Below, in pieces: positions 25,540 through 50,544 of a stretch of DNA of 64,000 bases. The position numbers and the translations under genes are program-made. The notes below the pieces were generated by a model. It saw only the letters and a list, made by a program, of their open reading frames with translations, was not told the DNA's origin and ran no database searches. The stretch lies in contig JABHAL010000015.1 of NCBI GenBank assembly GCA_018674305.1, forward strand, positions 30,683 to 94,682, written 5' to 3'. Each line of letters begins with the position of its first letter. Position 1 is the stretch's first letter. The stretch is from Candidatus Falkowbacteria bacterium. GTDB lineage: Bacteria > Patescibacteriota > Patescibacteriia > UBA11705 > JABHMO01.

Positions 25540-27168
25540 TTATTTAATTTTATAAAGAAGTAAGTTCTTAGTATCTATTATTTTTTCAATATCCTCATCC
25601 TTCTCCATCCACAAATAATCTTCCCACTCTAATTCCTTGGCTAATATAATATATTTTATATTTAATTCATCTTTTTTCAATAATTGTACTGGAGCTTTAT
25701 ACTTTATCCAATCTTCAATAAAATTGCTGTCATTAGCTACATTATTACTATAAATATTTCCAATCTCAATATTTGTTCCTATAATCACTGGACATTCAAA
25801 ATATAAATTTGCTGGATTTGCAACTATCCTACCAATCCAATTGAAACTCATATACATATGCCAGGGCAAAAACAAAGTATTCCCATCACAGTCTTGTTCC
25901 AGTAAATATTGATCTACTTCTTGCCAATCTGGAGGATACCTAGCGGGATTAATCTGTCCATAGCCAGCCCCAAACAAAGGTAATGACTGAAAACAGACCA
26001 AAAAGATTAAAGTTGTTATAAAGACTGTTTTATAACTTTTAAATACTTTACTTTGAGTTAAACCATATACACCACACGCAAACCAAACTGTGTACACCAA
26101 AACAATTAGACTTATCCACTTGGCTGTATCTCTCATCCCTTTATAAAACGGGAAATTATCAAACATGAATTCAGTAATTTGTTTAGTTATTGGGAGACGA
26201 ATACCAACAGCTAAAGTGATAGCAACTATCCACATGATTATCAGGCCGATAGCTATTTTTTTAGTTTTTGGATCTTTGAATAATCGCCAGACACCATAAA
26301 TTAGTAATGGCACTAGCATTATAAAGGCTACTCGAAAATTAGTATTAGTAGCAATATCCAAATAACGATGCTGTTCACTACCCCAAAAGCCTGATAATAA
26401 AATAACATTAAGCAGTGCATCTTGCCCCGTCTCACCAGCAGTTCTGAAAAAAAATAGATGTTCTTTGGTAATTGTTTGACCAATAAAATCTTGATCCAAG
26501 GTTTTGGTTGCAAAAACTCCGATTATCCAGTTCAAGTTAATCACAATGCAAATTAGCAGTGACCATAAAACTATTTTTTTTAATTTTTGTTTGTTCAATA
26601 TATTTTTCGGAATCCGAAAAAGATATAGCAAGAAAAAGATAATTCCTACTAATCCTATGAAAAATAAAAAATGTGCTGAAAAAACTAAACTAAAGGAGAA
26701 ATAAATTGCTGCCTTGAATAAATTTTTTATTTGATTCGATTGAACTAACCTGATTAAATGGGAAAAACCAAAACCAAACAAGGCAAAAGCTAACAAGAAA
26801 TGCAATTGGCCATACATTAGCCGATCATATACAAATGGATTTACTAAAGTCAATAAACTGGCCAACCAAACAACAAACTTATTGTCAAAAAAGTTTCTAG
26901 TTATACTTCTACCACTCAAAATAATAGCTGCCAAAACTCCAGTAATAAATAGTTTTTGAATAAAAGCTATTGGTAAAATAAGTGACAATATTTTCACTAT
27001 TGAATTTAACAGAAAAGACTGCTTAAAAAAATCAACCGTTATTTGCGGACCCCAAGCAAGGTCAGTTAAAAATACAAAACCTGGTTTTAATAATATTGGA
27101 ATAACAATTACCAAAATAGGAACAGCATACCAAGTCAAATCTGAAATTTGATTTTTTTGTTTATTCAT
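25540..27168 (-). CDS. Polytopic membrane protein with C-terminal soluble domain (GT-C-like candidate). The start is moved to the ATG at 27168, 2 nt after the upstream stop
   Basis: >10 TM helices; ATG (MNKQKNQ) immediately after the stop of the rSAM gene. Confidence 0.4.
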   Translation of the reverse strand: MNKQKNQISDLTWYAVPILVIVIPILLKPGFVFLTDLAWGPQITVDFFKQSFLLNSIVKILSLILPIAFIQKLFITGVLAAIILSGRSITRNFFDNKFVVWLASLLTLVNPFVYDRLMYGQLHFLLAFALFGFGFSHLIRLVQSNQIKNLFKAAIYFSFSLVFSAHFLFFIGLVGIIFFLLYLFRIPKNILNKQKLKKIVLWSLLICIVINLNWIIGVFATKTLDQDFIGQTITKEHLFFFRTAGETGQDALLNVILLSGFWGSEQHRYLDIATNTNFRVAFIMLVPLLIYGVWRLFKDPKTKKIAIGLIIMWIVAITLAVGIRLPITKQITEFMFDNFPFYKGMRDTAKWISLIVLVYTVWFACGVYGLTQSKVFKSYKTVFITTLIFLVCFQSLPLFGAGYGQINPARYPPDWQEVDQYLLEQDCDGNTLFLPWHMYMSFNWIGRIVANPANLYFECPVIIGTNIEIGNIYSNNVANDSNFIEDWIKYKAPVQLLKKDELNIKYIILAKELEWEDYLWMEKDEDIEKIIDTKNLLLYKIK

Positions 27169-28744
27169 TGTTATATTTTTTTTCTTTTTGTTTCTTTCTA
27201 AGCATTGTGACATCAAACCGACCATAATATATTGACCGGAAGACAAGCTTAATAACACTAATAACGATCTTTAAAGTATATAATAAACTGTCTTTTGAAT
27301 AAACTTTATAAAACACTTCCCAAGGTCTAAAAACATATCGTAAAATCTTGTTTTTCAAAAACTTTTTTGTCGCAAATCCAACTAGGTCGTCAAGTTCTTT
27401 ATTACTCAAATGTCTAGTTCTAACCTCAGCTGACAAAAAATTTGAAATCAATCTAGCATTTTGACTATTTGGATCAATCATAGCATCAAAGTTTAGTAAC
27501 TTTTCTTCTCTCATTATTTTATACAATGGAGCATCAGGATATGGTGTCAATTTGTAAAAAGCTGCATAATCAACACCACAGGACAAAGCAAAATTAACTG
27601 TATCCATTATTTTTTCCTTAGTTTCATATGGAAAGCCAAAAATTGTAGTGATCACAGTCCACATTCCAATCTTATTAGCATATTGCAAAAGTTCTTTAGC
27701 TTGAGCAAGATCAAAAGGTTTGCCAATAAACTTTCTAATCTCATTATTACCTGACTCAATACCAAAAGTAATTCTATAACAACCAGCCCTGCGCATCAAT
27801 AACAAAATTTCCTTATTCAATGTCCAATGAGCAATCCCATTTGGTGTTGACCAGTAAATTTTCAATCCACGATCAATAATCCCCTGACAAATTGCTTTGA
27901 ACCTATGTGGATCAACGCTAATACTATCATCAAGAAATGAAATTTCCTTAATACCAAAGTTTTTCTGCAAATATTCAATTTCATCAAGAACTTGATCAGG
28001 TGTTTTACCTCGCCACTTGTGTCCCCAAACAGTTTTTACTGAACAATAAATACAGTCCATTGGACAACCACGACTGGTTGATAACTGAAAAGACGGCGTT
28101 TTCATTTGATAATCCTCATTAAAGGTAATATATCTTTTCATGTCCAAGGAGGCATAATCCAGAATTGGTAAAGTTTTTATATCCAAAGGTTCACGAACAC
28201 CTGTTTTGATCGGTTTTCCTTTATTATTCCTATAAGCAATCCCAGGTACATCCTGAATAGATTGATTTTCTGAATATTTATTTAATAAATCCAAAAATGT
28301 TAATTCACCCTCACCTATCACAACTAAATCAACATTTTTGTCAGTTAAAGTCTCTTGCCAGAAATTTGTGGCATGAGTACCACCAAAAATAACTTTTACT
28401 TCAGGATTTATCTTCTTGGTAATACTAGCTATACTATGTGAATCCATAAAATACCTAGTAAACACACAAGAAACACCAACTATATCTGGCTTACTTTCTC
28501 TAATCTTCTTTTCAATCTCTGTATCATCAACACCTATTCTCACACTGTCATTGGCTAATCTTTTTCTAATCTTTTCCTTGGTAAACATGAAATCCTCTAT
28601 CATTATATTTTCATAACCATGTTTTTTTACATAACTTAAAACAGATAAAAGATTAATTGGAAATGAAACCGCTCCAGCATTAGAATCTTCACCATAATGC
28701 GTTAACGGTGGTTGTATTAATAAAATTTTTAAATCTTTTTTCAT
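27161..28744 (-). CDS. B12-binding (class B) radical SAM enzyme
   Basis: N-terminal cobalamin-binding Rossmann region (KILLIQPP...) and TSRGCPMDCIYCS CxxxCxxC motif. Confidence 0.8.
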   Translation of the reverse strand: MKKDLKILLIQPPLTHYGEDSNAGAVSFPINLLSVLSYVKKHGYENIMIEDFMFTKEKIRKRLANDSVRIGVDDTEIEKKIRESKPDIVGVSCVFTRYFMDSHSIASITKKINPEVKVIFGGTHATNFWQETLTDKNVDLVVIGEGELTFLDLLNKYSENQSIQDVPGIAYRNNKGKPIKTGVREPLDIKTLPILDYASLDMKRYITFNEDYQMKTPSFQLSTSRGCPMDCIYCSVKTVWGHKWRGKTPDQVLDEIEYLQKNFGIKEISFLDDSISVDPHRFKAICQGIIDRGLKIYWSTPNGIAHWTLNKEILLLMRRAGCYRITFGIESGNNEIRKFIGKPFDLAQAKELLQYANKIGMWTVITTIFGFPYETKEKIMDTVNFALSCGVDYAAFYKLTPYPDAPLYKIMREEKLLNFDAMIDPNSQNARLISNFLSAEVRTRHLSNKELDDLVGFATKKFLKNKILRYVFRPWEVFYKVYSKDSLLYTLKIVISVIKLVFRSIYYGRFDVTMLRKKQKEKKYNNE

Positions 28745-28745: not shown

Positions 28746-31463
28746 CTATTCATCTTTTTTACAACACACAACATACACTACCAACATACCCAGTGCAATT
28801 ATTGATATTAATCCTCCAAAATAAAACACATTTTGTGGCCAAAATTCCAAAACAACTAATCTTGTTGGGCCAAGTACTGAATCATCCAATTGCCAACTAT
28901 TAGCATAACCATTTGCCAATCTAACCGGCGCTAAATTACCTTCATCACGAGAAAATACTTTTGTGAAAAAGTTTTGTTCTTTATCAGTTTCATATGTTTT
29001 TATAGTCCAACCTGAGTTATAACCATTGTTAAAAACTAAACTATAAATACCATCCAACTTAGGAACCTCTACAACATACTTGCCAGGATTTAGTTTAGCA
29101 AATTCTAAACCTTGATCATAATCTGGTTGAATATTTTCTTGATTATAAACAAAAAGCAAATTGTTCACAGGTATAGCATATATTGAATGTCCTTCAGCAT
29201 TCTTAATATCTACAGAATAAATATCTTTTTCAAGATTAAATTTACCAAAGTCAATCCAATCACCAGACATAACAACATCACTTCTAATTACTTTATCGTC
29301 AAGACTTAAATATACAGGTGCTTCTAAACCTGCTTCATTCAAATTAAAATATATTTCATACTCACCCGTATGAACAATCTCTAATTTGTAATCATCCAAA
29401 ACAACATTTTCCGTGTTGTAATTTACTTCTCTTTTTAGTCTAGCTTGTTCCTCTGAATCACTGATTTCTGTAGCCTCTTTTAATTCTTTATTGAACTCTG
29501 CTAATTTATCAATATCTGTATTATTAGCAATTACTTCAACTGCATATTCTCCATACTGACCAGCTTCAGAAAAATGAATTACAGGTTTAAAGTTATTATT
29601 ATATTCAGAAATATCCAAGTAAGAAATCAAAGAACCCATATCACCATCAATAACAATATCTTTATTAGCAATGTACAAAAACGGTGTAAAATCATTATAT
29701 TCGTATAAATCAATATTCTCACTTAAACTCAGCAAGTTCAAATCCTTATTATTCATTAAATATTCTTTTTGTTGTGAAATATTCCAAATTCTAGCACAAC
29801 TAAAATGCGGTACTATATCCGTGCGGAAATAAACATACTGAATATTTAAAATCTGTAACATTTTTGAATACAACTCTGAATTTTTTGCTTGACATTGAAA
29901 ATCTCGAAAACCTTGCAACAACTTCTCACCCATTTTATTACTAAATCCTTGATCAACCACAACATTAAATGGTGCAAATATTTGATTCACATCAACACCC
30001 TGGCCATCTAACTGATAATCATTTGGTACAAACGCTGGTGAAAAAGAAATTGGTTGAGCCAGAACCTTGGCACCTTCAAGATTCTCATCTAGATATTCAT
30101 AAACTTCTTCCAAATCTGGATTTAACTGATAAACATCAATATGATCTTTATTTTTTTTAGTTAAAACCTCTCGTCCTATATCTCCTAAATACCAGTATGG
30201 CAAACTCCAGACAAGCAAAATTATAATCAAAACACTTTTAGCAATTTTCTTATTTACCTTTTTTAAATCTTCAAAAATCAAAGTAAATCCGTACGCAAAA
30301 ATTATTGTTAAACAAAACAACACACCAGGAATATAATGCTGCGCAGATCTGAACATAGCATAAGCAGAAAAATGTTGTACTAACCAAAGCACAAAATCAC
30401 CAAATGGCGGGTTTCCACTTGTAGCAAAAATCATGAAGATAACAAATGTAAATAACCAAAATAAAATATCCTTATTAAACTTCTTTTTTATCGTGACATA
30501 AAGAAAGGTTCCAGCCAAAGACAAATACATTACAGCATACCAAATTGGCAAAATCACATTTGACATCGTAGCTGTAAACATGTGTCTATCAAAAAAACCA
30601 GTACCGACTAACATCTGCCAAACCTTTGGAGCAGACTGAATATTTTTCAAAGCAATACCAGCAAAACCTTTCTGAGCTTTCAAGCCTGATAAATAACCAA
30701 AATCAGCAATCATTGGCACAATCCAATAAGCGTTTAAAAACAAGGAAAAAACTCCAACAAGTATTAATCGTTTAATAATCTGCCAATCTTTTTTCAGCCA
30801 AGCATACCAACTACAGTATAAACAAAACATTACTACCACAAATACAAATTGTTGAATTGAGATCATCAAGGCAGTAATTAGAACTGCTGAAGTTAGCAAA
30901 TATATCTTGCGAGAACTGTTAATCAAATAATGGAACGACAAAAAACACCATGGCCAAAGAGCATAGGCCAAAAACTGACTCATAGCTCCACCAATAAATT
31001 CAGAAAACAGGAATGGTGAAAACCCATACAATAAACCACCAACAAAAGACATTAAACCAAGATTTGCTTCCAATTTATAGTGTTTAAGCAGCCTTCTTAA
31101 ACACAGATACATACCAAAAGCTGCTAAAGTCATTGTAAAAATCAATAAAAACTTAGAAAAGTAATTACCATCCAAATCAAGCAAAGAAAATGGCCCAACC
31201 AAAATAATTCTTAACAATTTCACTGGCAAGGTCAAAGACATAGCAGAAAAACCTAAAACAGAATCTTTCCAAAGATAAAAGGAAGAATAAACTTGATTAG
31301 ACAGAAACGAAGCCATGTTCGGTACTGACCAATCCCAATTATGTCCAACTGTACCCACAGTGCTAAGTAATTTTCTTATCGAAAAAACAGCCATTAGCAC
31401 ATATAAACAAAAGGCTGACACAATTTGAACTTTATTTTGTAGAAACAATTTTTTCAATTTCAT
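28746..31463 (-). CDS. Large (~900 aa) polytopic membrane protein with big extracytoplasmic C-terminal domain (GT-C / YfhO-like candidate)
   Basis: About 14 N-terminal TM helices then a ~450-aa soluble region; start uncertain (31463 or 31496). Confidence 0.4.
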   Translation of the reverse strand: MKLKKLFLQNKVQIVSAFCLYVLMAVFSIRKLLSTVGTVGHNWDWSVPNMASFLSNQVYSSFYLWKDSVLGFSAMSLTLPVKLLRIILVGPFSLLDLDGNYFSKFLLIFTMTLAAFGMYLCLRRLLKHYKLEANLGLMSFVGGLLYGFSPFLFSEFIGGAMSQFLAYALWPWCFLSFHYLINSSRKIYLLTSAVLITALMISIQQFVFVVVMFCLYCSWYAWLKKDWQIIKRLILVGVFSLFLNAYWIVPMIADFGYLSGLKAQKGFAGIALKNIQSAPKVWQMLVGTGFFDRHMFTATMSNVILPIWYAVMYLSLAGTFLYVTIKKKFNKDILFWLFTFVIFMIFATSGNPPFGDFVLWLVQHFSAYAMFRSAQHYIPGVLFCLTIIFAYGFTLIFEDLKKVNKKIAKSVLIIILLVWSLPYWYLGDIGREVLTKKNKDHIDVYQLNPDLEEVYEYLDENLEGAKVLAQPISFSPAFVPNDYQLDGQGVDVNQIFAPFNVVVDQGFSNKMGEKLLQGFRDFQCQAKNSELYSKMLQILNIQYVYFRTDIVPHFSCARIWNISQQKEYLMNNKDLNLLSLSENIDLYEYNDFTPFLYIANKDIVIDGDMGSLISYLDISEYNNNFKPVIHFSEAGQYGEYAVEVIANNTDIDKLAEFNKELKEATEISDSEEQARLKREVNYNTENVVLDDYKLEIVHTGEYEIYFNLNEAGLEAPVYLSLDDKVIRSDVVMSGDWIDFGKFNLEKDIYSVDIKNAEGHSIYAIPVNNLLFVYNQENIQPDYDQGLEFAKLNPGKYVVEVPKLDGIYSLVFNNGYNSGWTIKTYETDKEQNFFTKVFSRDEGNLAPVRLANGYANSWQLDDSVLGPTRLVVLEFWPQNVFYFGGLISIIALGMLVVYVVCCKKDE

Positions 31464-32592
31464 ATTTAAAATTGTTGGAAAATTTTTGCCAATCACACTT
31501 ATCTTTTACGATTTCCGCTGCCCTATCCGCAATTCTGGTTAATTTTTCTGTATTATTATTTTTTATAATTTTTTGAATCTGCTGACTTTGCTTATTTGTA
31601 TTTTTTGTATCAATAATAAAGCCACTTTCCTGATCAGTGATAAACTCAGAGTTTGCCCCAACATCTGTAGTTATTATCGGCCGCCTCATTGACATGGCTT
31701 CTAACAAAACCAATGGTGGCATATAGTTTGTATACAAATAAGGCAATAAAACAAAGTTAACTTTGGCAAACTCGCCTGGAAAATCATCACAATATCCTAA
31801 CAATTCAACATTCCTTATCTGATAACGTTTAATAATTCGTTTAATTAAATCTTTGGTAGCTGGGAAATATTCCGGCCAAGCTAATATTTTAAACTTTGAA
31901 CTTTTCAGTTTACGAGCTATATTAATTATCTTTAATGGTCCTCGTCGTAAATCCAAAGCACCAAAATACAAAAATTTCACTTCATCATCCAATTTATTTT
32001 CTGGTAAATCTTTTTCAGGTATCTCTTTAATACCAGGATAACAAATTTGCACCTTCTTATTATATACTGGTTTAATATAATTTTTTAAATATTCACATGA
32101 AGCAATCACTTTATCAACATAATTTAACTTTTTCAAAAAAAACTTTTTTGTTTTCAAACCATCAAACACTGCGTGAAAAACTTCAAACAAAGTATTATCA
32201 ATATTACGGAAAAAATTCTTTGATGGATAAATTATATTGAAAAAATTCAACTTTAATACATTATAAAAATTTGATTTTGGATAATTAATATGCGTTAAAT
32301 AAAAAATGGCAGGAATACCTAACTTTTTTCTAACCAAACCTGTCAGTGCTCCCCAAAATGGTGTACCACTACTTAAAATAACATCTCCAGTATAATCACC
32401 TTTTTTATACTTAAATATGCTTTTTATAATATGATAATTTTGCCAAGATGACATTGGACCAACATTTTCAGTAATAATCTCATAACTATGTCCTTGCTTT
32501 TCCAAATCTTCTGCAAGCTGAACCAACTTCTTGGCATCGCCACCAAGATTTTCCCCCTTGATTAAAAATGGTTCAAATAAAAGTATTTTCAT
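31432..32592 (-). CDS. Glycosyltransferase family 1 (GT4-like)
   Basis: LLPYLYTNYMPPLVLLEAMSMRRPIITTDVGANSEFI EX7E motif. Confidence 0.75.
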   Translation of the reverse strand: MKILLFEPFLIKGENLGGDAKKLVQLAEDLEKQGHSYEIITENVGPMSSWQNYHIIKSIFKYKKGDYTGDVILSSGTPFWGALTGLVRKKLGIPAIFYLTHINYPKSNFYNVLKLNFFNIIYPSKNFFRNIDNTLFEVFHAVFDGLKTKKFFLKKLNYVDKVIASCEYLKNYIKPVYNKKVQICYPGIKEIPEKDLPENKLDDEVKFLYFGALDLRRGPLKIINIARKLKSSKFKILAWPEYFPATKDLIKRIIKRYQIRNVELLGYCDDFPGEFAKVNFVLLPYLYTNYMPPLVLLEAMSMRRPIITTDVGANSEFITDQESGFIIDTKNTNKQSQQIQKIIKNNNTEKLTRIADRAAEIVKDKCDWQKFSNNFKYEIEKIVSTK

Positions 32593-38396: not shown

Positions 38397-38513
38397 TAAT
38401 TTTTCTTTTCCGTCTATAGAGCCACCCTGGGGGTTTTGGGGTGAAATTGAGCCCATGAAAGAACCCCAAAGCATACTATTTGTTACGGCGAATTTGAAAC
38501 CCCAACACTTTTT

Positions 38514-38539: not shown

Positions 38540-38548
38540 AAAGTTTTA

Positions 38549-41671: not shown

Positions 41672-43645
41672 TTATTCGTAGTAAGCTTTTTCAATATGAG
41701 CGCCATTCTGTTCACTAAACCTTTCTTCAGCATATGGCCTACAATTTGCAGTCAACCGGTCTAATTCTTCTTTATTATTTTTTAAATATAATATTTTTTC
41801 TTTAACATTTTCTAATGATGGATCAATCAAAAACCCAACTTCAGGTGTTATCATAAATGGCAAACAACCTCTATTCGATGAAATTAACGGACGACCAGAT
41901 GAAAATGTTTCTAATACAACTCTTGCAAAACCTTCTTCATACTGTGATGGCAAAGCTACAGCATCGGCAGAGCCATAATATGGTGGTACTTCTTCTGGCG
42001 ACTTTCTACCAACAGCAAAAATATTTGACTGCTTCTTACCTAATTCTTTGATCTCTTCTTCCATTGGCCCATCACCAACAAATACAAAATTAATATCTAT
42101 TTCTTCTTTGGCGATATCAAGCAAAACCTTTGCACCTTTCTTTTCAATCAAACGACCAACAAAGGTTATTGTAAATCGATCAGGAATACCAATCTGTTTT
42201 CTAGCTTCTTGTTTATTGTAAGGTTTGAAATTATCCTGATCACACCATTGAATATATATATCCAAAATTTCAGCCGGTAATTTGGCTTTTAGTAAATCCT
42301 GACGAGATGGTTCTTCCAAACAGAAAACCATAGTAAATCTTTTCAAAATCCAATGACAAACCTTTGTTAACCATCCTTTTCCAAAACCATAAATCGCATG
42401 CATACTACCAATCAAGCGAACTTTGAAAAGTCGAGATAATAAATTGGCACAAAACGCTGCTGCAAAACCATGAGCATGGATCACTTGCCATTTGGCTTTT
42501 TTACCTGCAAACAATCGATAGAAAAAAGTAAACACAAGCAGTCCTGGTACTAAATAAGCAAATTGTAGCGGGGCAAACTTTTCAAATCGATGAAAAAGAG
42601 TTTTGCCAAACCATGGGATACGATAAATCGTTAAATTTTCAGCAGTTTCTTTGAATTTTGCTTTGACTCTGGTTGTCAGAGGTTTATAAGTAATAATTGT
42701 CACTTGCCAATTCTGTTTAAGAAGATAACTTTGCAAATCTGCAATATGAGTTTCCACACCACCAGTATTTGGCAATAAAAATGGTGATAAAATTAATACT
42801 TTTTTTGGCTCTTTTGATTCCATATTATTTGTTTTTTTATGTCTGAAAATAAATTTAAGTCCAACTAAAAAGCGCAATCCATACATTCCCAAAGTTGAAA
42901 TCGGCTTAATCAATAACTTTTTCCATTTCCCTTTTTCAATAAAAATCCCCAAGAACCGATAGTACAAACCGAGCTGTTTTTGCAAATCAGGATCAGTCAT
43001 CCCCCACTTGGCAATATATTTATCAAAACTTTTTGCATAATACCCCTTTTTCTGTAAATAACTTTTTAATTCTATTTCTGACTCATTATGATCAAGTGCT
43101 GTTTTAATCAGAGCTGTTTTTCCTTTTTGTCGAAGTTTTTTATCCAAATCCCAATCTTCTGGTCCTGTGAAGTTCAGATCAAAACCACCAACTTCTTGAA
43201 AAGTTTGTTTTTTTATAAATCTTGCACAGTCAACAACTGTACCATCATAAAAACTTCTTTCAAATCGCCTGATTTGACTTAGGAACTTATCACCCATAAC
43301 AACCTCAGGCACATACAAACCAACAATTGCCGTATCTTTTTTTATTAACTCGACACATTCTGTAATTACTTCTGGTCGAAGGATCATATCAGCATCCAAA
43401 TACATAAAATACTCACCTCTGGACTGATCAACACCAAAATTTCGCTGCGCTGATCGTTCTGGACCTTGATTAAAAACTTTTTCAGTGTACTGTTTCGCAA
43501 TTGCAGCGGTTTTATCATCAGAATTATTATCAACCACAATAATTTCAATTAAATGCTTGGGATAAGTTTGATCTCTTATTGAACGAAGACAGTTCTCAAT
43601 ATGTTTTTCTTCATTCTTGGTTGTGATTATAGCTGAGACAAACAT
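41672..43645 (-). CDS. Bifunctional GT2 (N-terminal) – GT1 (C-terminal) glycosyltransferase fusion
   Basis: IITTKNEEKHI...IIVVDNNSDDKT at the N-terminus; GT-B EX7E-like region (GRPLISSNRGCLPFMI) at the C-terminus. Confidence 0.7.
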   Translation of the reverse strand: MFVSAIITTKNEEKHIENCLRSIRDQTYPKHLIEIIVVDNNSDDKTAAIAKQYTEKVFNQGPERSAQRNFGVDQSRGEYFMYLDADMILRPEVITECVELIKKDTAIVGLYVPEVVMGDKFLSQIRRFERSFYDGTVVDCARFIKKQTFQEVGGFDLNFTGPEDWDLDKKLRQKGKTALIKTALDHNESEIELKSYLQKKGYYAKSFDKYIAKWGMTDPDLQKQLGLYYRFLGIFIEKGKWKKLLIKPISTLGMYGLRFLVGLKFIFRHKKTNNMESKEPKKVLILSPFLLPNTGGVETHIADLQSYLLKQNWQVTIITYKPLTTRVKAKFKETAENLTIYRIPWFGKTLFHRFEKFAPLQFAYLVPGLLVFTFFYRLFAGKKAKWQVIHAHGFAAAFCANLLSRLFKVRLIGSMHAIYGFGKGWLTKVCHWILKRFTMVFCLEEPSRQDLLKAKLPAEILDIYIQWCDQDNFKPYNKQEARKQIGIPDRFTITFVGRLIEKKGAKVLLDIAKEEIDINFVFVGDGPMEEEIKELGKKQSNIFAVGRKSPEEVPPYYGSADAVALPSQYEEGFARVVLETFSSGRPLISSNRGCLPFMITPEVGFLIDPSLENVKEKILYLKNNKEELDRLTANCRPYAEERFSEQNGAHIEKAYYE

Positions 43646-43652: not shown

Positions 43653-45113
43653 TTATTTGCGATTTTTAAAATCAGCCAAATGACTAAACACCTTTTTTGC
43701 TGAAGTTAATAAATATTTAATATCATCCATACTTCTTATTGAAAATAACTTTCGAACAATAAATTGAGGGCTCATCCAAGCTTTATATAGTTGCTGTGTG
43801 AAGTTTTTCACATCCTCTGTTGTTAATTCGCTTTTCATGACCTGTTCACGCTGATCAAACCGATCGTAATCTTTGAATCTAAGTAGATCGTTTTCCTTAC
43901 AGTATTTATAAAGTGGTGTGCCGGGATATGGAATTACAACTGTGGCCTGAAGAGTGTCAACAAGACCGCCCTGAAATAGTTTTTTGGCCAAATCGATAGT
44001 ACGCTGAGCATCGACCTTGGTTTCCCATGGATATCCAATCATGGCCGTAATATGAGGTTCAAGTCCGGCCTCTTTACAAATTTTTAGGCCGGGTTCAATT
44101 TCCTCTATTTTTAAATTTTTATCAATTTTATCTAAAGTTACTTGATTCGCAGATTCTAATCCGAATAAAACAAATCTAAAACCAGCTTTTTTCATTAAGT
44201 GCCATATTTTTATATCATCAATTCCATTAATCCGCATATTGCAACTCATGACCACCTTTTTATTTAAGCCACTCTCTATCATACCATTGCAAAAATCAAT
44301 TAGCCAATCGCCAATTGGTAAACTGCCAGAATCCTCCATGATTTCTTTAACACCCAGAGAAACTAAATGTTCAACTTCATCCAAAGCTTGCTCAGCGGTT
44401 CTGGTTCTAAAAGATTTACCAGGGAAAAAAGTAGTCCAAGAACAAAATGTGCATCTTCCCCACCAACAATCTCGACCACTCATCATATAGGAACCTGGTG
44501 TATGTTTGAAATTACCATTCTTTTCTGAATAAAGTTTCCATTTGGTTAATTCTCGATCAATCATTGGTAAATTAGTCAATTTATTCTCATGTAAATTGTA
44601 TTCTCCACTATTTGTGACTTTCCTTTCTTCTTTGAAATAAATACCAGGCGTTAGTGAAGCACCTTTACTTAAATGATTAGCAATGCCAAGAAGCATAAAA
44701 TCAAAATCACCACCAACGATAACATAATCAACTAAGCATTTTTCAAAAGATTCCAAAGGTCGAGCTGTTGCATGGTCTCCCATTAAAACAATTTTTGAAT
44801 CTGGTAAGCTTTTTTTTATTTCATCAATTATTTGCCAATGTTTTTTCACAACTGGTGTTTTGGTTTCAATAGCAATCACATCCGGCTTTTCAGCAATCAA
44901 TCTCATTAGCCAGTCATTATAACTTAACTCTTCAGCAATTCCATCATCCCAAAAAACCTCAAACCCCTTTGACTGTAACAAAGTTCCTGCATACGCAGGA
45001 ATCATTGGGTAAATATAGGTTGGACTATTGAACCATTGAAATTGCCGATTCTGAGTCAGTAAGGGTACGCCCTTGGGCGATTCTAATGGAGGAAAGGATA
45101 TTGAAATTTTCAT
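43653..45113 (-). CDS. B12-binding radical SAM enzyme with unusual Cx4CxxC cluster spacing
   Basis: Cobalamin-binding N-terminal domain (VIAIETKTPVVKK...); SGRDCWWGRCTFCSW. Confidence 0.7.
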   Translation of the reverse strand: MKISISFPPLESPKGVPLLTQNRQFQWFNSPTYIYPMIPAYAGTLLQSKGFEVFWDDGIAEELSYNDWLMRLIAEKPDVIAIETKTPVVKKHWQIIDEIKKSLPDSKIVLMGDHATARPLESFEKCLVDYVIVGGDFDFMLLGIANHLSKGASLTPGIYFKEERKVTNSGEYNLHENKLTNLPMIDRELTKWKLYSEKNGNFKHTPGSYMMSGRDCWWGRCTFCSWTTFFPGKSFRTRTAEQALDEVEHLVSLGVKEIMEDSGSLPIGDWLIDFCNGMIESGLNKKVVMSCNMRINGIDDIKIWHLMKKAGFRFVLFGLESANQVTLDKIDKNLKIEEIEPGLKICKEAGLEPHITAMIGYPWETKVDAQRTIDLAKKLFQGGLVDTLQATVVIPYPGTPLYKYCKENDLLRFKDYDRFDQREQVMKSELTTEDVKNFTQQLYKAWMSPQFIVRKLFSIRSMDDIKYLLTSAKKVFSHLADFKNRK

Positions 45114-45124: not shown

Positions 45125-46096
45125 TTATCGTAAACTGATTTTTATTTGTTTTTTAAATAAACCTTTTATAAAATTACTTCCGTAAGCAATATGGGTTCCG
45201 AAAATATATGGCAAAGCCACAAATGCTACTGATCTTTTTTCATGCTTTCTAATATCAAAAAAAGCTTTAATTAACGCTAGTACATAAATAAATAAACCTG
45301 CAATATATGGCCATAGTAGCCATTCAATTTGCAAACTGACTATCAAACCAACTACAATATAAACTAGAAATAAACTTGGTAAGAAATACTTAAACCTCCT
45401 TGAAGTTTTAGGGAATTTTCGAGCAAAATGACCTCTATGCAAACCATAAGCGCCAACCTGTTTCATATGTCGCCAAAAACCTTCGCGACGATGATGATAA
45501 ACTAAAGCTTCTGGTAAATACAGTATTTTTTTACCAGTTTTTTTGATCAGCTCCAAACAGAACAGAGTATCCTCTCCTGGCCAATAATTACTATCAAAAC
45601 CACCAACCATTTCAAAGACATTTTTTCTGACTGACAAATTAACACTTGGCCAATCGTCAACAAATCTTTTTTCACCAATTGGCACATATCTTTCCGGACA
45701 CCCGCCAGACAAAGGACTTAAAAAAACTGCGCCAGAAACTTTTTGTTGAAAACTATTGTGCTTAGGTGTAATCGCTGGACCACCTACGGCAACAATTTCC
45801 TGATCAGCAAACTCAGCATCTAACTTTTTAAGGAAATCAATGTTTGGATAAGCATCATCATCAATAAAAATTAAAACTTCTCCCTGAGCTTCTTTAATTG
45901 CCAAACTTCGTTTCATTGCTGGACCTCCAGGGCCTGTTGCTACTTGCTTTGTTTTTGTCCAGGTTTCTGAACTGGATTCGTCAGGGAAAATTATAATTTC
46001 ATAATCATCGCGGTTAATTTTAAGGATCTTTGGAATTGATTCCCTAATATACTCATTGATTTTCTTAACCGGAACTATGAAGCTATATTTTATCAT
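45125..46096 (-). CDS. Glycosyltransferase family 2 with C-terminal TM helices
   Basis: FIVPVKKINEYI...IFIDDDAYP; 2-3 C-terminal TM helices. Confidence 0.7.
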   Translation of the reverse strand: MIKYSFIVPVKKINEYIRESIPKILKINRDDYEIIIFPDESSSETWTKTKQVATGPGGPAMKRSLAIKEAQGEVLIFIDDDAYPNIDFLKKLDAEFADQEIVAVGGPAITPKHNSFQQKVSGAVFLSPLSGGCPERYVPIGEKRFVDDWPSVNLSVRKNVFEMVGGFDSNYWPGEDTLFCLELIKKTGKKILYLPEALVYHHRREGFWRHMKQVGAYGLHRGHFARKFPKTSRRFKYFLPSLFLVYIVVGLIVSLQIEWLLWPYIAGLFIYVLALIKAFFDIRKHEKRSVAFVALPYIFGTHIAYGSNFIKGLFKKQIKISLR

Positions 46097-46099: not shown

Positions 46100-47389
46100 T
46101 TATCTACCTATACCGAAATAATTAAATCCAAGATCTTTCATTTCTTCAGGCTCAAAAATATTTCGACCATCAATTATTACATCGCCCTTCATAATTGAAC
46201 GCAAAGCTCGAATATCAAGTTGTTTGAATTCATTCCAATCAGTAATAATCAAAAGTGCATCACATTCTTTAGCTGTATCATACGGACAGCTCGAATAATA
46301 AATATTAGGAAATATTTTTTTAGCATTAGTTACAGCTACTGGATCATAAGCTCTGATATTAACATTGTGTTCAATTAATTTTTTGATAATACTCACAGCT
46401 GGGGCAGATCTAATGTCATCAGTGTTCGGTTTGAAGGCCAATCCCCAAAGTCCAATGGTTTTTTGTGATAAATCGGATATTTGATTTTTTAACTTTCCGT
46501 ATAAAATTAATTTCATTTCTTCATTTACTTCTTCGACTTGATTTAGAATTGTAAAGTTGTGATTGTTTACTTGCCCTATTTTAATCAAAGCTTGTACATC
46601 TTTTGGAAAACAAGATCCACCATAACCACAACCAGCATGCAGAAATGATTGTTTACCAATTCTCTTGTCAAATCGAACACCTTCTGAAACTTTTTTTACA
46701 TCAGCACCTACTTTTTCACAGATTAACGCAATACTATTTATAAACGAAATACTCGTAGCCAAAAAAGCGTTTGATGCATACTTGATCATTTCTGCACTTT
46801 TTAAATCTGTGATAACAATTGGACAATTTAATGGCTCATATATTTTTTTCATTTTTTCAATTGCTTGCTTACCATTATCACTACCCAAAACAATTCTGTC
46901 AGGTTGTATGAAGTCTTGAATAGCTGAACCTTCACGCAGAAATTCTGGATTAGAAATTACATCAAATTCTCCAGCATAGTATTTTTTTATAATTTGTGAA
47001 ATTAGGTTACCTGTTCCTATTGGTACTGTACTTTTATTGATAATGATTTTATAACCATTTATACTTTTACCTATCTCATGAGCAACTGCTTCTACATATT
47101 GTAAATCAGCTTCACCATTTTCCTTTGATGGAGTCCCAACAGCAATATATATTATTTCTGTTTGTTCAATGTTTTCCTTTAAATTTGTATGAAACTTTAA
47201 CCTACCAGACTCAAAATTTCTTTTTACTAAATCTTCTAATCCTGGTTCGTAGATTGGAATAATTCCATTTTTCAAATCTTGAATTTTATTTTCATCAATA
47301 TCAATACAAGTGACAATATTTCCTAGATCTGCCAAGCATGTACCTGTCACTAAACCAACATAACCTGTCCCTATTACAATAATTTTCAT
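46100..47389 (-). CDS. ugd: UDP-glucose 6-dehydrogenase
   Basis: [19 protein letters not shown]-binding fold and catalytic GGSCFPKD. Confidence 0.85.
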
Positions 47390-48333
47390 ATACCTGTAAC
47401 TATATTCTTAAAATACTCAATAGTGTTTATTAAACCTTGTTCAAGCTGAATGTTTGGTTCCCAATTTAATTTATCTTTGGCTAAATTTATGTCGGGCTTT
47501 CGTTGAAGTGGATCATCCATTGGTAATGCTTTGTAAATAATTTGGCTAGTTGAGCCTGGTAGTAATCTTAAAACATTTTCAGCCAACTGTTTTATAGTAA
47601 ATTCAACAGGATTACCTAAATTCACAGGCCCAATAAAATTTTGTTCATTGTTCATCATTAAAATCATACCATTAATTAGATCATCAACGTATTGAAAAGA
47701 TCTTGTTTGAGAACCATCACCGTAAATTGTCATTGGTTGATTTTGTAATGCTTGAACAATAAAATTAGAGACTACTCGCCCATCATTTGGATGCATATTT
47801 GGACCATAGGTGTTAAAAATCCTAATTATTCTAATATCTATCTTGTTTTGCCTATGATAGTCCATAAATAAGCATTCTGAAGCTCTCTTGCCCTCATCAT
47901 AACAAGATCGAATCCCAATTGGATTGACATGTCCCCAATATGACTCTGTTTGAGGATGCACACTTGGATTACCATAAACTTCTGAAGTTGATGCTTGCAA
48001 AATTCGAGCATTTACTCGTTTAGCCAGTCCGAGCATGTTAATCGCCCCTGAAACACAAGTTTTTATAGTTTTGATTGGATTGTATTGATAGTGAACCGGT
48101 GACGCGGGACAAGCCAAATTGTAAATTTGATCGACCTCCAACCAAATCGGATTGGTAATATCATGACGAATAAATTCAAAATTTTCATGACTCATCAACT
48201 TATAAACGTTGTCTTTTCCACCAGTGAATAAATTATCCAAACAAATGACATCATCACCTTGCGATAATAATCTCCTGCAAAGATGTGATCCTACAAAACC
48301 AGCCCCCCCTGTTACCAAAATTCTTTTTCTCAT
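47386..48333 (-). CDS. uxs: UDP-glucuronate decarboxylase (UDP-xylose synthase)
   Basis: [23 protein letters not shown] and the UXS-characteristic [16 protein letters not shown]. Confidence 0.75.
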
Positions 48334-49289
48334 AAATCTGTATCAAAATTATTTTTTTTCTTAATTATATATAAAGGTCTGTTGTTAACCTCTTGATGAA
48401 TATTGCCAATATACAAAGCAATTAGACCGATACTACACAGAAATACACCCATCAAAAATAAAATCAGAATAGATATTTGAGCCATATTAGAGAAGTGCAT
48501 TTCTAAAGGGTCATGCAAAAAATGCATCTCAACCAACATAAACATTCCAACGAGAGAGGAAAAAATAGTTATAATGACGCCCAAATAACCTGCTAGTTTT
48601 AAGGGAAATAAACTATGAGTGATAAAAGAATTAAAAGCTAACTTCATTAACTTACAAAATCCGTAGTTCGCCTTGCCTGCAAATCTTTTGTTAGCCGTAA
48701 ACTTGACGTACTCTCTCTTGAATCCAAGCCAATCGATCAAAACTCTAGTTATCCTATTTTTTTCATTAAATTTATTAAACTCATCTATTACTTGTCTATC
48801 AATCAAACGAAAATCGGTTTCTCTAGGAAGAATTTTCGTTTCACTTATTAAGTTCATGATTTTGTAAAAGAAAAATGATCCTGATTGTTTAATCCACCCT
48901 TCTCCCTTGTTTTTTTCTCTAATACCAACCACAATATCATTGTTTTGTTGCCATTTATTTATAAATTCAGGGATTAGTGCAGGTGGATGTTGTAAATCAG
49001 CATCGACTATTATAGCGCAATCACCTTTTGACTGTTTTAACCCCGCGGAAGTTGCCAATTCCTTTCCAAAATTTCTAGAAAATTCAATATATTTGATGCG
49101 ATTATCTGACTTTGATAGCTTTTTCACAATATTAAATGATTGATCTGTACTACCATCATTTATAAAAATAAATTCAAAATTGAAGGGCAATGGTTGGATT
49201 ACTTTTGTTAATTCAAAATAAAGCTTTTCCAAATTGGCTTCTTCATTATAAAGGGGAATTATTAAGGAAATTAATTTATTGTCTGACAT
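48330..49289 (-). CDS. GT2 polyprenyl-phosphate sugar transferase (DPM1/GtrB/ArnC-like) with C-terminal TM helices
   Basis: [15 protein letters not shown]...[10 protein letters not shown]; 2 C-terminal TM helices. Confidence 0.7.
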
Positions 49290-50544
49290 ATGATTTTTGG
49301 TCTTTCTCTAATTCGTATCTATAATAAATATAAGTAGCAACTAAAATAACAAACATTGAAGCCAACATAGCATAAATAACCTGAGTGATTGTTTGATGAA
49401 AGAAAAACAACAAACTAATTTGTAGTAATAAACCTACAACAAATATATATAAAATTTTAAATTTTGAAACTGCCAAAAAATAGCGAGAATAAAGATTGAC
49501 AATTGAAAACATCATCATGGCGATTCCAAATAAACCGATATATTTAGCGATTCCTAAATATTTTGAACCAACTAATACTTTAATAATCAAGGTTGGCCAG
49601 AAAAAATACACTAAAATTATACAAACTGAGGTCAAAACAACCAAGAATAAAGTATTTTTCAGCAAATTCCTCTCACTTCCTTCTTTCTCGGCCCGAGAAA
49701 TCATTGGAAAGACGACTGTAGCTATTACTCCTGTAATAAAAAATATGACCTTGCCGATAATTGAAATCGCTCCATATTGACCAGCTTCCTCTGGTGATAA
49801 AAAATATTTTACTAATAATACGTCTGCATTATAAAATAACCCTAAACACAAAGTAACTACAAACGTCGGCATTAGGTATATTAACATTTCTTTGGAATCT
49901 TTCAATTTTCCGGCTCTGGGCCTGATATATTTACGGATCGGAAATAAGCTGATTAAATACCCAAAAACCGCTGCCAGACTAACACCACCAATCACACCGC
50001 TTAATCCAAATGACAAACAAACAAAGGAAATCGCAAACAAAATCTTCGTTATTACGTTTACAACGCCAAGCCACGACATTGCAAAAAAATTTTCCGTACC
50101 ATTCATTATCCCTTGGTTAACCGCCGACGGAAATGAAGCTAAAAATAAAACTCCGAGAATAACCACCGGCCAAAAACTATCCAATTTTAAGAATCCAGCA
50201 ATTAGCGGACTTGCTGATATAAAAAGGATAAATATGACAAAACTCCAAAATATTAAAACTTTTGTGAATGAATTAAATAACTGAGAAATTTTTTCAGGAT
50301 GATTCTCAGCTTTGAAGTCAGCTGTATATTTAACGATCATGGTAATCAACGTAGCCGCTGGAACAGAAACAATGTACATTAACGAGATCAATGCTTCAAA
50401 CTCTCCAAAAGTCTTGACATCCAACATCCGACTCATAATCAAATGAAATAAAAAACCTCCGGCACTGGCTATCATAGTACCAACAAAATATATAAAACTA
50501 TTGCTAAGCAATTTACTTTTTTTGACTAGCGCAATCGGATTCAT
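49276..50544 (-). CDS. MOP-superfamily polysaccharide flippase (Wzx-like)
   Basis: About 12 TM helices, no soluble domain; operon position after the GT and sugar-nucleotide genes. Confidence 0.55.
   Translation of the reverse strand: MNPIALVKKSKLLSNSFIYFVGTMIASAGGFLFHLIMSRMLDVKTFGEFEALISLMYIVSVPAATLITMIVKYTADFKAENHPEKISQLFNSFTKVLIFWSFVIFILFISASPLIAGFLKLDSFWPVVILGVLFLASFPSAVNQGIMNGTENFFAMSWLGVVNVITKILFAISFVCLSFGLSGVIGGVSLAAVFGYLISLFPIRKYIRPRAGKLKDSKEMLIYLMPTFVVTLCLGLFYNADVLLVKYFLSPEEAGQYGAISIIGKVIFFITGVIATVVFPMISRAEKEGSERNLLKNTLFLVVLTSVCIILVYFFWPTLIIKVLVGSKYLGIAKYIGLFGIAMMMFSIVNLYSRYFLAVSKFKILYIFVVGLLLQISLLFFFHQTITQVIYAMLASMFVILVATYIYYRYELEKDQKSYVRQ

Follow-up and report, generated by a model that had tools for sequence, protein, structure and literature searches.

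Introduction

The closest described counterparts of the locus reported here are the O-antigen and capsule loci that depend on Wzx, along with systems that combine a lipid carrier with a GT-C enzyme (GtrA/B/V, ArnC/T and Pgf). They share with it a flippase, a GtrB-type GT2 glycosyltransferase, UDP-glucose 6-dehydrogenase (Ugd) and UDP-xylose synthase (UXS), together with many glycosyltransferases (GTs), methyltransferases and GT-C transferases, and a conserved core followed by a variable region. Unlike these systems, the present type of locus has one to seven embedded radical SAM (rSAM) enzymes, of which one belongs to the core. Furthermore, no initiating phosphoglycosyltransferase of the WbaP or WecA type was detected among the scanned ORFs of the window, which denotes the whole stretch of 64,000 nucleotides analyzed. 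No adjoining Wzy was found either; the sole Wzy_C protein among these ORFs (5561-7090) lies 20 kb from the locus.

In the HpnI-HpnK-HpnJ step of the hopanoid pathway, a GT2 enzyme glycosylates a lipid-linked acceptor; the added sugar is proposed to be rearranged by a non-methylase rSAM enzyme of class-B type (PMC9204698). The locus displays the same pairing of a GT2 with a class-B-type rSAM, and HpnJ is the top NCBIfam match of its core rSAM. The score of 150 bits, however, falls short of the cut-off (578), the GT2 has no HpnI-like match, hopanoid genes are absent and the cluster-binding motif is CX4CX2C.

The rSAM enzymes BtrN, AprD4, BlsE and DesII belong to antibiotic pathways, as do the further sugar-acting enzymes GenK, NeoN and HygY. 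For every one of the six rSAMs in the locus, the strongest matches in sequence and fold come from the former group. The twitch enzymes of the window have a twitch-type, four-cysteine auxiliary cluster similar to that of BtrN, and its B12-type enzymes combine, like AprD4, a B12-like N-terminal Rossmann domain with an rSAM barrel.

Organization of the locus

The window originates from a MAG of Candidatus Falkowbacteria (Patescibacteria, CPR), a lineage in keeping with the reduced-genome organism supposed in the initial annotation. Every gene from 23481 to 61867 lies on the minus strand, and within the locus only two gaps exceed 50 nt (89 nt and about 151 nt), which agrees with the tightly packed, co-directional run described earlier. 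The six rSAM genes are present at the positions first given, with Pfam domains that match, except that the start of the second B12-domain gene is corrected from 38396 to 38397. They are co-directional with genes for GTs, methyltransferases, Ugd, UXS, a Wzx-like flippase and AftD-like GT-C membrane proteins. Domain or homology searches also recovered the FkbM-type and Trm112-like class I methyltransferases, the flippase, the ugd-uxs module, the fusion annotated as GT2-GT1 (here GT2-GT4) and a P-loop fusion with weak P-loop matches. The count of at least seven GTs had been too high: the interval 27161-50544 contains five GT-A/GT-B genes with six catalytic domains, and further ones lie outside. 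The two giant GT-C-like membrane proteins both exist, the second (25540-27168) falling outside the start originally assigned to the locus.

The conserved core

The core genes are arranged in the order flippase, GtrB-like GT2, GT2, rSAM and GT2. The opening gene (49276-50544) encodes a Wzx-like flippase of the MOP family with 11 hydrophobic segments (Pfam Polysacc_synt, 63.5 bits), and many loci have a homolog ahead of the core rSAM. It is followed by a GtrB/ArnC-type polyprenyl-phosphate GT2 (48330-49289) with two C-terminal TM helices. A search of the PDB matched this protein over its full length to GtrB sll0501 (E 1.2e-72) and also to ArnC (5e-34), and NCBIfam returned PgfS (240 bits). The genes for UDP-glucuronate decarboxylase (UXS; 47386-48333; E 3e-125 to the human UXS1 structures 4gll/2b69) and Ugd (46100-47389; three UDPG_MGDP_dh Pfam domains of 225, 120 and 115 bits) overlap by 4 nt. 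UXS orthologs of at least 45% identity are found in 8 of 40 related loci.

The second GT2 (45125-46096; Pfam GT2) is membrane-anchored through two C-terminal TM helices, and its top NCBIfam match is MftF (100 bits, under the cut-off). Its partnership with the core rSAM is obligate: of 48 testable loci, 45 have a homolog immediately upstream of that gene. The core rSAM itself (B12rSAM_C; 43653-45113; Pfam Radical_SAM, 53.7 bits) has a class-B fold, with AprD4 as the best fold match. Its motif, formed by C216, C221 and C224 in 'DCWWGxCxFC', is invariant in 13 homologs. The family comprises more than 120 protein clusters at 65-79% identity and was recovered from at least 516 metagenome loci.

A GT2-GT4 fusion (41672-43645; Pfam matches to both halves) completes the core. 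Of 57 loci, 32 have a GT2 as the next gene downstream of the core rSAM, and 37 of 38 downstream neighbors align to fusion residues up to 300, that is, to the GT2 half. Homologs of the GT4 half lie directly upstream of homologs of the twitch-like rSAM SPASM_3 in six of nine loci. The fusion joins a GT2 whose place after the core rSAM is conserved to a GT4 that usually precedes SPASM_3.

The variable region and its relatives

The remaining five rSAMs, three twitch-like and two with a B12 domain, belong to the variable region. In L100, a seven-rSAM locus of a distant relative, each of the six window rSAMs has an ortholog at 40-55% identity, and the order is colinear or nearly so. L098 contains five rSAMs, orthologs of five of the six (43-58%). 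L099 also has five, including clear counterparts of the core rSAM, SPASM_2 and B12rSAM_A; the other two show only about 30% identity to B12rSAM_A and B12rSAM_B. L003 is a further rSAM-rich locus.

SPASM_3 (40650-41669; Pfam Radical_SAM and SPASM) conserves only the cysteines C259, C277, C322 and C325. Next to it, a class I SAM methyltransferase (39670-40560; Pfam Methyltransf_11/25/31) carries a Trm112-like zinc-ribbon N-terminus, with a weak Trm112 match and a CxxC...CxxC pattern in the sequence, and has a 40% ortholog in L098. The twitch/SPASM-type SPASM_2 (38549-39667; Pfam Radical_SAM and SPASM) is closest to BlsE among solved structures (1.3e-13); its orthologs in L098 (55%), L100 (43%) and L099 (37%) all lie in glycan loci. 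B12rSAM_B (37021-38397; B12-binding 65.4 bits, Radical_SAM 97.1 bits) is closest to AprD4 (3.4e-22), and its orthologs in L098 (58%) and L100 (41%) each directly follow that of SPASM_2. SPASM_1 (35918-37024; Pfam Radical_SAM and SPASM; Cys 240/258/304/307) is closest to BtrN (7e-8), and its L098 and L100 orthologs are 54-55% identical to it.

Beyond SPASM_1 lies an FkbM-family methyltransferase (34991-35875; Pfam Methyltransf_21, 80.8 bits; NCBIfam fkbM_fam, 113.7 bits, over the 37.7 cut-off). The adjacent GT2 (33943-35004; 102.7 bits) co-travels with SPASM_1 and has orthologs in L098 (61%), L100 (58%) and L099 (49%). A protein with a P-loop NTPase/kinase-like N-terminus and an uncharacterized domain (32595-33932; AAA_22 28.5 bits, dTMP kinase 21.6 bits) and a GT4 of the GT-B type (31432-32592; Glycos_transf_1/Glyco_trans_1_4) precede the distal membrane proteins. 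The last rSAM, B12rSAM_A (27161-28744/28774; B12-binding 69.8 bits, Radical_SAM 92.8 bits), has AprD4, OxsB and TokK as closest solved structures and orthologs in L098 (43%), L100 (40%) and L099 (37%).

The GT-C candidates of the window have no direct Pfam match. The polytopic membrane protein at 28746-31463 (about 905 residues; ten N-terminal and one C-terminal hydrophobic segments) is classified by transitive homology as an AftD-like GT-C glycosyltransferase. It aligns to its L098 counterpart with 22% identity over 692 residues, two of five aligned family members match GT-C_AftD (3.8e-11), and the family profile retrieves AftD (6w98/6wbx) alone from the PDB, with an E value of 0.013. The MmpA-like protein at 25540-27168, with 10 TM segments (NCBIfam MmpA, 101.8 bits, cut-off 210), is possibly a second GT-C or a polymerase. 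Two uncharacterized genes without Pfam match follow (23481-25535; 232 residues with 5 TM, and 379 residues with 1 TM). The trio memb572-hyp232-hyp379 is found after the core in L018 in the same order as in the window.

Classification of the rSAM enzymes

The initial annotation distinguished three class-B (B12-binding) enzymes from three paralogous SPASM enzymes. The former assignment stands, with B12-binding domains over the Pfam threshold in B12rSAM_A and B12rSAM_B and a sub-threshold one in the core rSAM (28.2 bits, cut-off 32.1). Cobalamin synthesis is not known in CPR bacteria. Mutual identities are 29-30% in the SPASM-type trio and 23-31% in the B12-type trio, so that both consist of old paralogs; an origin by recent duplication was rejected. 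Because none of the six attains the cut-off of any curated NCBIfam family, function is not transferable from such families, and a grouping with housekeeping enzymes is not observed.

The closest solved structures all act on sugar-like substrates (AprD4 for three, BtrN for two and BlsE for one), at low identities of about 15-25%. Fold searches were concordant, the core rSAM matching AprD4 best and SPASM_3 (predicted model, pLDDT 91) matching BtrN ahead of BlsE. The premise of peptide-maturase-like SPASM enzymes is borne out by the Pfam matches and not by the cysteines: all three lack the full seven-cysteine SPASM set and have four to five C-terminal cysteines in a single-cluster, twitch-like pattern, in line with BtrN and BlsE as closest structures.

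Discussion

Taken together, these features make it probable that the locus directs synthesis of a cell-surface glycan or glycoconjugate by a lipid-linked pathway, with a conserved core and a variable rSAM tailoring region. From the gene identities, synteny and family conservation, we infer the following substrates, step order and rSAM reactions. The Ugd-UXS pair would supply UDP-GlcA and UDP-Xyl, with a polyprenyl-phosphate carrier serving as the platform for sugar assembly on the cytoplasmic side of the membrane. Each rSAM may modify the residue freshly installed by the neighboring transferase; in the variable region the rSAM genes alternate with those for GT4, GT2 and SAM methyltransferases, and putative AftD-like GT-C enzymes stand at the end. 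The twitch enzymes would catalyze BtrN/BlsE-type oxidation, epimerization or decarboxylation, and the B12-domain enzymes C-methylation or an AprD4/HpnJ-type dehydration or rearrangement. Once the product has been flipped, the GT-C enzymes would attach or extend it on the outer side of the membrane. Several observations weigh against this reading: the scanned window ORFs include no initiating phosphoglycosyltransferase, identity to AprD4, BtrN and BlsE is low, no curated rSAM family is matched, the GT-C candidates lack direct Pfam matches, and the B12 domain of the core rSAM is sub-threshold in a group not known to make cobalamin.

SPASM domains are shared with RiPP maturases and anSME, and the weaker matches include SuiB and SkfB. 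The PgfS-like GT2 and a PMT_2 GT-C would also suit protein O-glycosylation, and a 46-residue ORF with a TTG start (38391-38531) occupies the 151-nt gap. Maturation of a peptide or glycoprotein encoded by an overlooked gene, or by one located elsewhere, is nevertheless extremely improbable. Comparison with 13 related loci revealed no conserved intergenic small ORF, each match lying inside a large gene, and L098, in which 10 nt separate the two flanking genes, lacks the 46-residue ORF. The SPASM-type enzymes have only 39-65 residues ahead of CX3CX2C, all-helical in the SPASM_3 model, and therefore no RRE. Cysteines for a second auxiliary cluster, a protease and an ABC exporter are absent from the locus, no sulfatase occurs among the window ORFs scanned, and no curated RiPP-maturase cut-off is attained. 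The absence of precursor and sulfatase, and the preference for a glycan over a RiPP product, thus agree with the first interpretation.

The rSAMs might instead modify a lipid (the lipid part of a glycolipid, the polyprenyl carrier or a membrane lipid) by methylation, cyclization or cross-linking, as in HpnP/HpnR, Tes/GDGT-MAS and the ladderane-associated B12 rSAM. In addition to the HpnJ match of the core rSAM, B12rSAM_B scores 145 bits with the ladderane-lipid family TIGR04072, GDGT-MAS is the second-best solved sequence match of SPASM_1 and SPASM_3, and GT2_319 and GT2_323 are membrane-anchored. We consider this unlikely: all these scores are far under the family cut-offs, lipid-synthesis genes are missing from the locus, every rSAM adjoins a GT in a locus with nucleotide-sugar genes, and the best structural matches act on sugars. 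Even for HpnJ, the proposed target is the sugar moiety of its substrate (PMC9204698).

The antibiotic origin of the closest characterized relatives, BtrN, AprD4 and BlsE, raises a further alternative, a small secreted or cell-associated glycoside resembling an aminoglycoside or nucleoside. The GT4 beside a twitch rSAM recalls the BtrM/BtrN pairing. Against such a specialized metabolite, which we regard as very unlikely, stand the Wzx-like flippase, the GtrB-type lipid-carrier GT and the GT-C membrane enzymes, the lack of 2-deoxy-scyllo-inosose synthase, aminotransferase and resistance genes in the locus, and the spread of the core through minimal-genome organisms. The setting is that of a probable membrane-linked CPR envelope glycan locus rather than a secondary-metabolite cluster.

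Upstream of this presumed glycan locus, an IVP-family gene is flanked by MTAP (50545-51324; TIGR01694, 300.9 bits, over the cut-off of 274.85) and APRT (51768-52289; over four cut-offs); these curated assignments replace the earlier labels 'PNP' and phosphoribosyltransferase. The pair may clear 5'-deoxyadenosine, the inhibitory rSAM by-product, as well as MTA, and recycle adenine. In L019 and L027 MTAP is a neighbor of the core rSAM, and L098 contains both MTAP and APRT. Such co-occurrence is confined to 3 of about 90 other loci and could be explained by inherited order of housekeeping genes.

A literature search found no description of this rSAM-rich glycan cluster. Homologs of the core rSAM, SPASM_3 or both are neighbors of GT genes in MAGs carrying the labels Omnitrophota, Bathyarchaeota and Desulfobacteraceae. 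In a MAG labelled Gammaproteobacteria, SPASM_3 is near Wzx and GT2 homologs, with neither a directly adjoining GT nor a core rSAM. Of the initial interpretation, the glycan assignment, the absence of housekeeping families and the neighborhood conservation it proposed to examine are upheld, the six-rSAM set being colinear in L100. The SPASM-maturase premise carries less weight than first assumed, and the pattern is not unique, since related Patescibacteria loci hold five to seven rSAMs, the same orthologs among them. The five variable-region rSAMs would represent a co-inherited set in this lineage. The cluster is not a one-off, as its rSAM set recurs in distant relatives, and the core module with its rSAM, a feature that had been overlooked, is widespread in Patescibacteria.

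Gene Content and Organization of the Locus

All substantial ORFs between positions 23481 and 61867 are on the minus strand, and about 45 of the 64 kb of the window are glycan-related, with a main locus of about 27 kb. The GC content across the island is 29–35%, and elsewhere in the window it reaches 42%. Pfam searches confirmed all six radical SAM (rSAM) genes at the coordinates that the initial annotation had assigned to them, each on the minus strand. Three are of the B12 type: rSAMs A (27161–28744) and B (37021–38397) carry N-terminal B12-binding matches of 69.8 and 65.4 bits, respectively, and the match of rSAM C (43653–45113), the core rSAM, is 28.2 bits, under the cut-off of 32.1. The remaining three (35918–37024, 38549–39667 and 40650–41669, the last referred to as SPASM_3) display a C-terminal Pfam SPASM match.

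These genes share the minus strand with a Wzx-like flippase of the MOP family (49276–50544; Polysacc_synt 63.5 bits versus a cut-off of 28.2; 11 hydrophobic segments), a GtrB-type polyprenyl-phosphate GT2 (48330–49289; full-length match to GtrB sll0501 with an E-value of 1.2e-72; ArnC homolog; two C-terminal TM helices) and a UDP-xylose synthase (UXS; 47386–48333; E-value of 3e-125 to human UXS1) that overlaps Ugd by 4 nt. The island further encodes three more GT2/GT4 proteins and one GT2–GT4 fusion, methyltransferases of the FkbM type and of class I with a Trm112 ribbon, a P-loop fusion whose P-loop match is weak, and polytopic membrane proteins with 10–11 hydrophobic segments each. The nucleotide-sugar genes (Ugd and UXS) and five glycosyltransferase (GT) genes thus occur together in one co-directional, operon-like array. 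At least seven GT2/GT1 genes had been counted initially, a number that must be lowered to five GT-A/GT-B genes (six domains) within the same range. The tight packing described there is borne out, as genes overlap or nearly abut and just two of the gaps between them are longer than 50 nt. An exact-sequence match assigns the window to a Candidatus Falkowbacteria MAG (GCA_018665965.1), and the source was thus correctly regarded as a reduced-genome organism. Promoter-like sites are no more frequent than expected from shuffled sequence, and the promoter scan is therefore uninformative on operon structure. The trio at 25540–27168, 24837–25535 and 23481–24620 also follows the core in one of the related loci (L018). 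It is probably part of the locus, whose lower boundary then lies beyond that originally drawn.

Several other elements of the window were recorded. A 15-bp AT-rich perfect hairpin at 38510–38543 (TTGTTACTTTTT...AAAAAGTAACAA), just past the stop of the rSAM gene at 38549–39667, occupies the sole large intergenic gap of the island. A second hairpin (53687–53710), GC-rich and resembling a bidirectional terminator, lies just downstream of tRNA-Trp (53751–53825) and divides the upstream glycan set from the island and the block of MTAP and APRT genes adjoining it. That upstream set (53871–61867, minus strand) comprises two GT4s, a GT2, a DUF2304 gene, a 224-aa GT2, an SDR and a PMT_2/LA_3751-like GT-C, and a further set at 5561–9714 (minus strand) contains a Wzy_C protein, a GT2 and a GT4. 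A Flavodoxin_2/NAD(P)H oxidoreductase-like gene (21166–21732, minus strand), which is not a classical flavodoxin, is located close to where the island ends downstream and could serve as an electron source for rSAM reduction. An AMMECR1 gene (12336–12914, minus strand) and a Memo/LigB-like gene (870–1658, plus strand) constitute two of the three 'AmmeMemoRadiSam' parts; they lie 11 kb apart, and neither is adjoined by a partner rSAM.

Relationship of the Six rSAMs to Characterized Enzymes

The three SPASM-type proteins are mutually only 29–30% identical and the three B12-type proteins 23–31%. A scan of all six against NCBIfam yielded many weak matches, none of which reached a curated cut-off; function is thus not transferable from the curated families. 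The B12-type rSAMs score 145–180 bits to BchE, HpnJ, ApyD and Sden_1168 (cut-offs of 480–750), and the twitch-type (SPASM-matching) rSAMs about 100–117 bits to a tungsten-cofactor maturase (cut-off of 380). Among solved structures, the closest by sequence is AprD4 for all three B12-type rSAMs (E-values of 3e-22, 7e-13 and 2e-9), BtrN for two of the twitch-type enzymes and BlsE for the third. The three B12-type rSAMs have the architecture of class B (cobalamin-dependent) rSAMs, an N-terminal B12-binding Rossmann domain combined with the rSAM barrel. rSAMs A and B have the canonical CX3CX2C cluster motif, in place of which the core rSAM has an invariant CX4CX2C.

Fold searches with structural models are concordant with the sequence searches. 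The best fold match of the core rSAM model is AprD4 (E-value of 1e-17; TM score of 0.65–0.72), followed by MgmA, TsrM, OxsB, CysS and TokK; on AprD4, MgmA, TsrM and OxsB the model superimposes with TM scores of 0.6–0.7. The SPASM_3 model matches BtrN first (E-value of 1.7e-14; TM score of 0.75–0.80 normalized to the length of BtrN), with a sequence identity of only about 18%, and then BlsE. To our knowledge, AprD4 carries no cobalamin. The enzyme, which is the structure closest to the core rSAM, is a 1,2-diol dehydratase and not a methylase according to its PDB title. AprD4, BtrN and BlsE all act on sugar-like substrates (aminoglycoside, cyclitol or glucuronate-nucleoside); the identity of these enzymes to the rSAMs of the window is low (15–25%). 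The matches indicate a substrate class and not a reaction.

The pairing of a GT2 (45125–46096) with the core rSAM parallels the ArnC–ArnD and DprE1/2-type tailoring of lipid-linked monosaccharides. It also parallels the HpnI–HpnJ pair of the hopanoid pathway, in which a sugar is put on a lipid and a ring contraction is then proposed (PMC9204698). The scores to HpnJ (TIGR03471), however, are 150–159 bits versus a cut-off of 577.6, and the window contains no hopanoid genes. An HpnI-like identity of the partner GT2 was rejected, as no HpnI-named family is found among its NCBIfam matches. Likewise rejected was an MftF/mycofactocin reading, for which MftF scores 100 bits versus a cut-off of 280 and the MftA–E genes are absent.

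Conservation of the Core and Recurrence of the Six-rSAM Set

The core rSAM belongs to a tightly conserved family of more than 120 protein clusters at 65–79% identity, labeled nearly all as Patescibacteria, Moranbacteria, Falkowbacteria or Parcubacteria, with an invariant DCWWGxCxFC (CX4CX2C) in place of the canonical motif. A pattern scan located it in at least 516 loci of JGI metagenomes, and window homologs were mapped onto 80 of these and four other loci. A homolog of the partner GT2 is directly upstream of the core rSAM in 45 of the 48 loci with enough sequence, and farther upstream lies a GtrB-like GT2 (24 loci) or Wzx (14 loci). Directly downstream, a GT2 is found in 32 of 57 loci; the downstream GT2 was matched by the GT2 half of the GT2–GT4 fusion of the window in 37 of 38 cases. 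In 8 of 40 loci, the core occurs together with a true UXS ortholog. These counts define a core of Wzx, GtrB-like GT2, (UXS/Ugd), GT2, rSAM and GT2, after which come variable GTs, SDRs, methyltransferases and one large membrane protein. A protein of about 165–170 aa with no Pfam match also follows the core rSAM in L016 (11540–12055), L017 (7361–7870) and L098 (2871–3365), and is absent from the window.

The number of rSAMs in this arrangement varies. In the 32 loci that offer at least 9 kb of sequence past the core rSAM, one rSAM is present in 24, two in five and three in three. A metagenome locus designated L100 (JGI 3300083231, Ga0675942_0000431; 5395–17672) contains seven rSAMs in about 12 kb, more than the window, including orthologs of all six window enzymes in almost the same order (40–55% identity), with orthologs of the GT4 and of the GT2 at 33943–35004 interleaved among them. 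Orthologs of five of the six, with 43–58% identity, occur in L098, and five rSAMs are present in L099, from a Shapirobacteria MAG. Homologs of SPASM_3 (45–58% identical) bear MAG labels of Patescibacteria, Omnitrophota, Bathyarchaeota, Desulfobacteraceae and Gammaproteobacteria; in nine loci from a contig search, the GT4 half of the fusion has a homolog directly upstream in six and within 3 kb in one more. The initial annotation had described the combination as an unfamiliar pattern. Six rSAMs in a glycan locus are indeed real, but they are not unique, given the seven of L100 and the five of L099. Since most loci are poorer in rSAMs and the six-enzyme set recurs, its presence in this genome is not accidental, and the window belongs to an rSAM-rich, co-inherited minority form of a locus that is itself very common.

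Comparison with RiPP, anSME and Surface Glycan Systems

The SPASM matches notwithstanding, five lines of evidence on small ORFs, cysteines, N-termini and missing genes argue strongly against a hidden RiPP or anSME system. When each short stop-to-stop segment in 23001–51500 was compared with 13 related loci, every match fell inside large conserved genes as an alternate-frame shadow, with none in intergenic gaps. This search, which found no conserved intergenic small ORF, agrees with the earlier statement that no precursor peptide is present. A 46-aa ORF at 38391–38531, in a gap of 151 nt, was rejected as a candidate because it starts with TTG and lacks a visible RBS, any recognizable character and conservation; in the syntenic L098, the genes flanking this gap are only 10 nt apart. 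After the barrel of the SPASM-type proteins only C-x17-C-x37..45-C-x2-C is conserved, which is the pattern of a twitch domain, with a single auxiliary cluster versus the two clusters of SPASM (PMC9012708), and not the full SPASM cysteine set. A single four-cysteine auxiliary-cluster domain after a partial TIM barrel is shared with the BtrN-like twitch rSAM dehydrogenases. In the SPASM-type proteins, the N-termini ahead of CX3CX2C comprise 39–65 residues, and this stretch is purely helical in the confident SPASM_3 model (pLDDT of 91), so that no RRE is present. No Pfam match to a PqqD-like domain was found on the rSAM genes, nor an anSME model among the best 25 NCBIfam matches per rSAM. The scanned ORFs of the window include no protease, no ABC exporter and, as previously noted, no sulfatase.

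The locus shares a flippase, nucleotide-sugar genes and several GTs with Wzx-type surface glycan loci, but differs from them in that its scanned ORFs include neither an initiating phosphoglycosyltransferase nor Wzy. No Bac_transf or Glycos_transf_4 match, expected of the WbaP/WecA type, was found in any scanned window ORF, and the sole Wzy_C protein among these ORFs (5561–7090) lies outside the island. With GtrB/ArnC plus GT-C systems it shares the GtrB-type polyprenyl-phosphate GT2 with its C-terminal TM hairpin. Both large membrane proteins and the C-terminal half of the P-loop protein have no Pfam match even at an E-value of 1. The 905-aa protein (28746–31463) aligns over 692 residues with its counterpart in L098; two of the five aligned family members match GT-C_AftD (3.8e-11), and a search of the whole PDB with the family profile returned only mycobacterial AftD structures, weakly (E-value of 0.013). 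On this basis, the protein is likely, rather than proven, to be GT-C-like.

MTAP and APRT Genes Adjacent to the Island

The genes labeled 'PNP' and phosphoribosyltransferase encode S-methyl-5'-thioadenosine phosphorylase (MTAP) and adenine phosphoribosyltransferase (APRT), a link that had been missed. MTAP (50545–51324, minus strand; TIGR01694, 300.9 bits versus a cut-off of 274.85) abuts the flippase, and APRT (51768–52289, minus strand) passes curated cut-offs. Every rSAM turnover leaves 5'-deoxyadenosine as an inhibitory by-product, which enzymes of the MTAP/MTAN type remove as well, and APRT recycles the adenine so released. In L019 and L027, MTAP is the immediate neighbor of the core rSAM; in L098, MTAP and APRT both lie within the locus, where they separate the core from the variable region. 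The pair may therefore provide 5'-deoxyadenosine and adenine salvage for an rSAM-rich locus, an association that is suggestive only, as it concerns 3 of about 90 loci and two housekeeping genes. Between MTAP and APRT lies a gene for a 23S-rRNA-IVP/bAvd-like four-helix protein (51342–51707, minus strand), a family also found directly upstream of the core rSAM in L016 (9586–9936), L056 (63–455), L059 (218–592) and L064 (9574–9966).

Proposed Pathway and Implications

The gene identities, the architecture of the locus and its conservation are established. As a general model, we consider it fairly probable that the locus produces a lipid-linked surface glycan tailored by radical chemistry. Sugars from UDP-Glc, UDP-GlcA and UDP-Xyl would be assembled on a polyprenyl-phosphate carrier, and the recurrent unit would be a GT-then-rSAM pairing, each rSAM working on the residue added by its neighboring transferase. 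By analogy, the twitch enzymes may catalyze BtrN/BlsE-type oxidation, epimerization or decarboxylation, and the B12-domain enzymes C-methylation or an AprD4/HpnJ-type dehydration or rearrangement. O-methyl groups would come from the SAM methyltransferases, Wzx would flip the product, and the GT-C enzymes would attach or extend it outside the membrane. More tentatively, and with rather more doubt than confidence, we propose that the main envelope glycan of Patescibacteria is built with radical chemistry: a near-universal CX4CX2C core rSAM of class-B fold would have as its target a lipid-linked sugar, perhaps one derived from xylose or glucuronate, and would remodel it, and in some lineages five to six further, co-inherited rSAMs would install C-methyl, deoxy, keto, epimerized or ring-rearranged sugars, with their own 5'-deoxyadenosine clean-up genes. 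The locus is real, conserved, widespread, testable and not unique to the window; its chemistry is a guess.

Full-text literature searches revealed nothing that ties radical SAM enzymes to the glycan loci of CPR bacteria. We know of no characterized rSAM in a primary cell-surface polysaccharide pathway, and unannotated examples exist in O-antigen and capsule loci. Glycan loci and the rSAM tailoring of sugars in antibiotic pathways are already known; to these the locus adds six uncharacterized rSAM families whose context is defined and probably that of carbohydrates, including a very abundant family with the non-canonical CX4CX2C motif. The biological scope of radical sugar tailoring would widen if it were shown in a primary cell-envelope pathway. 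The presence of six oxygen-sensitive, cofactor-hungry enzymes in one locus, together with the retention of the same set across lineages only 40–58% identical, argues for a selected and unusual product. CPR/Patescibacteria constitute a large, mostly uncultured share of bacterial diversity, and their envelope glycans are essentially uncharacterized. A host-attached life is known for many of the members studied, so that attachment, host range, and phage or immune recognition are probably under the control of their surface chemistry. If the more tentative proposal above is true, these organisms would possess a radically tailored cell-surface polysaccharide of a kind not described for any organism.
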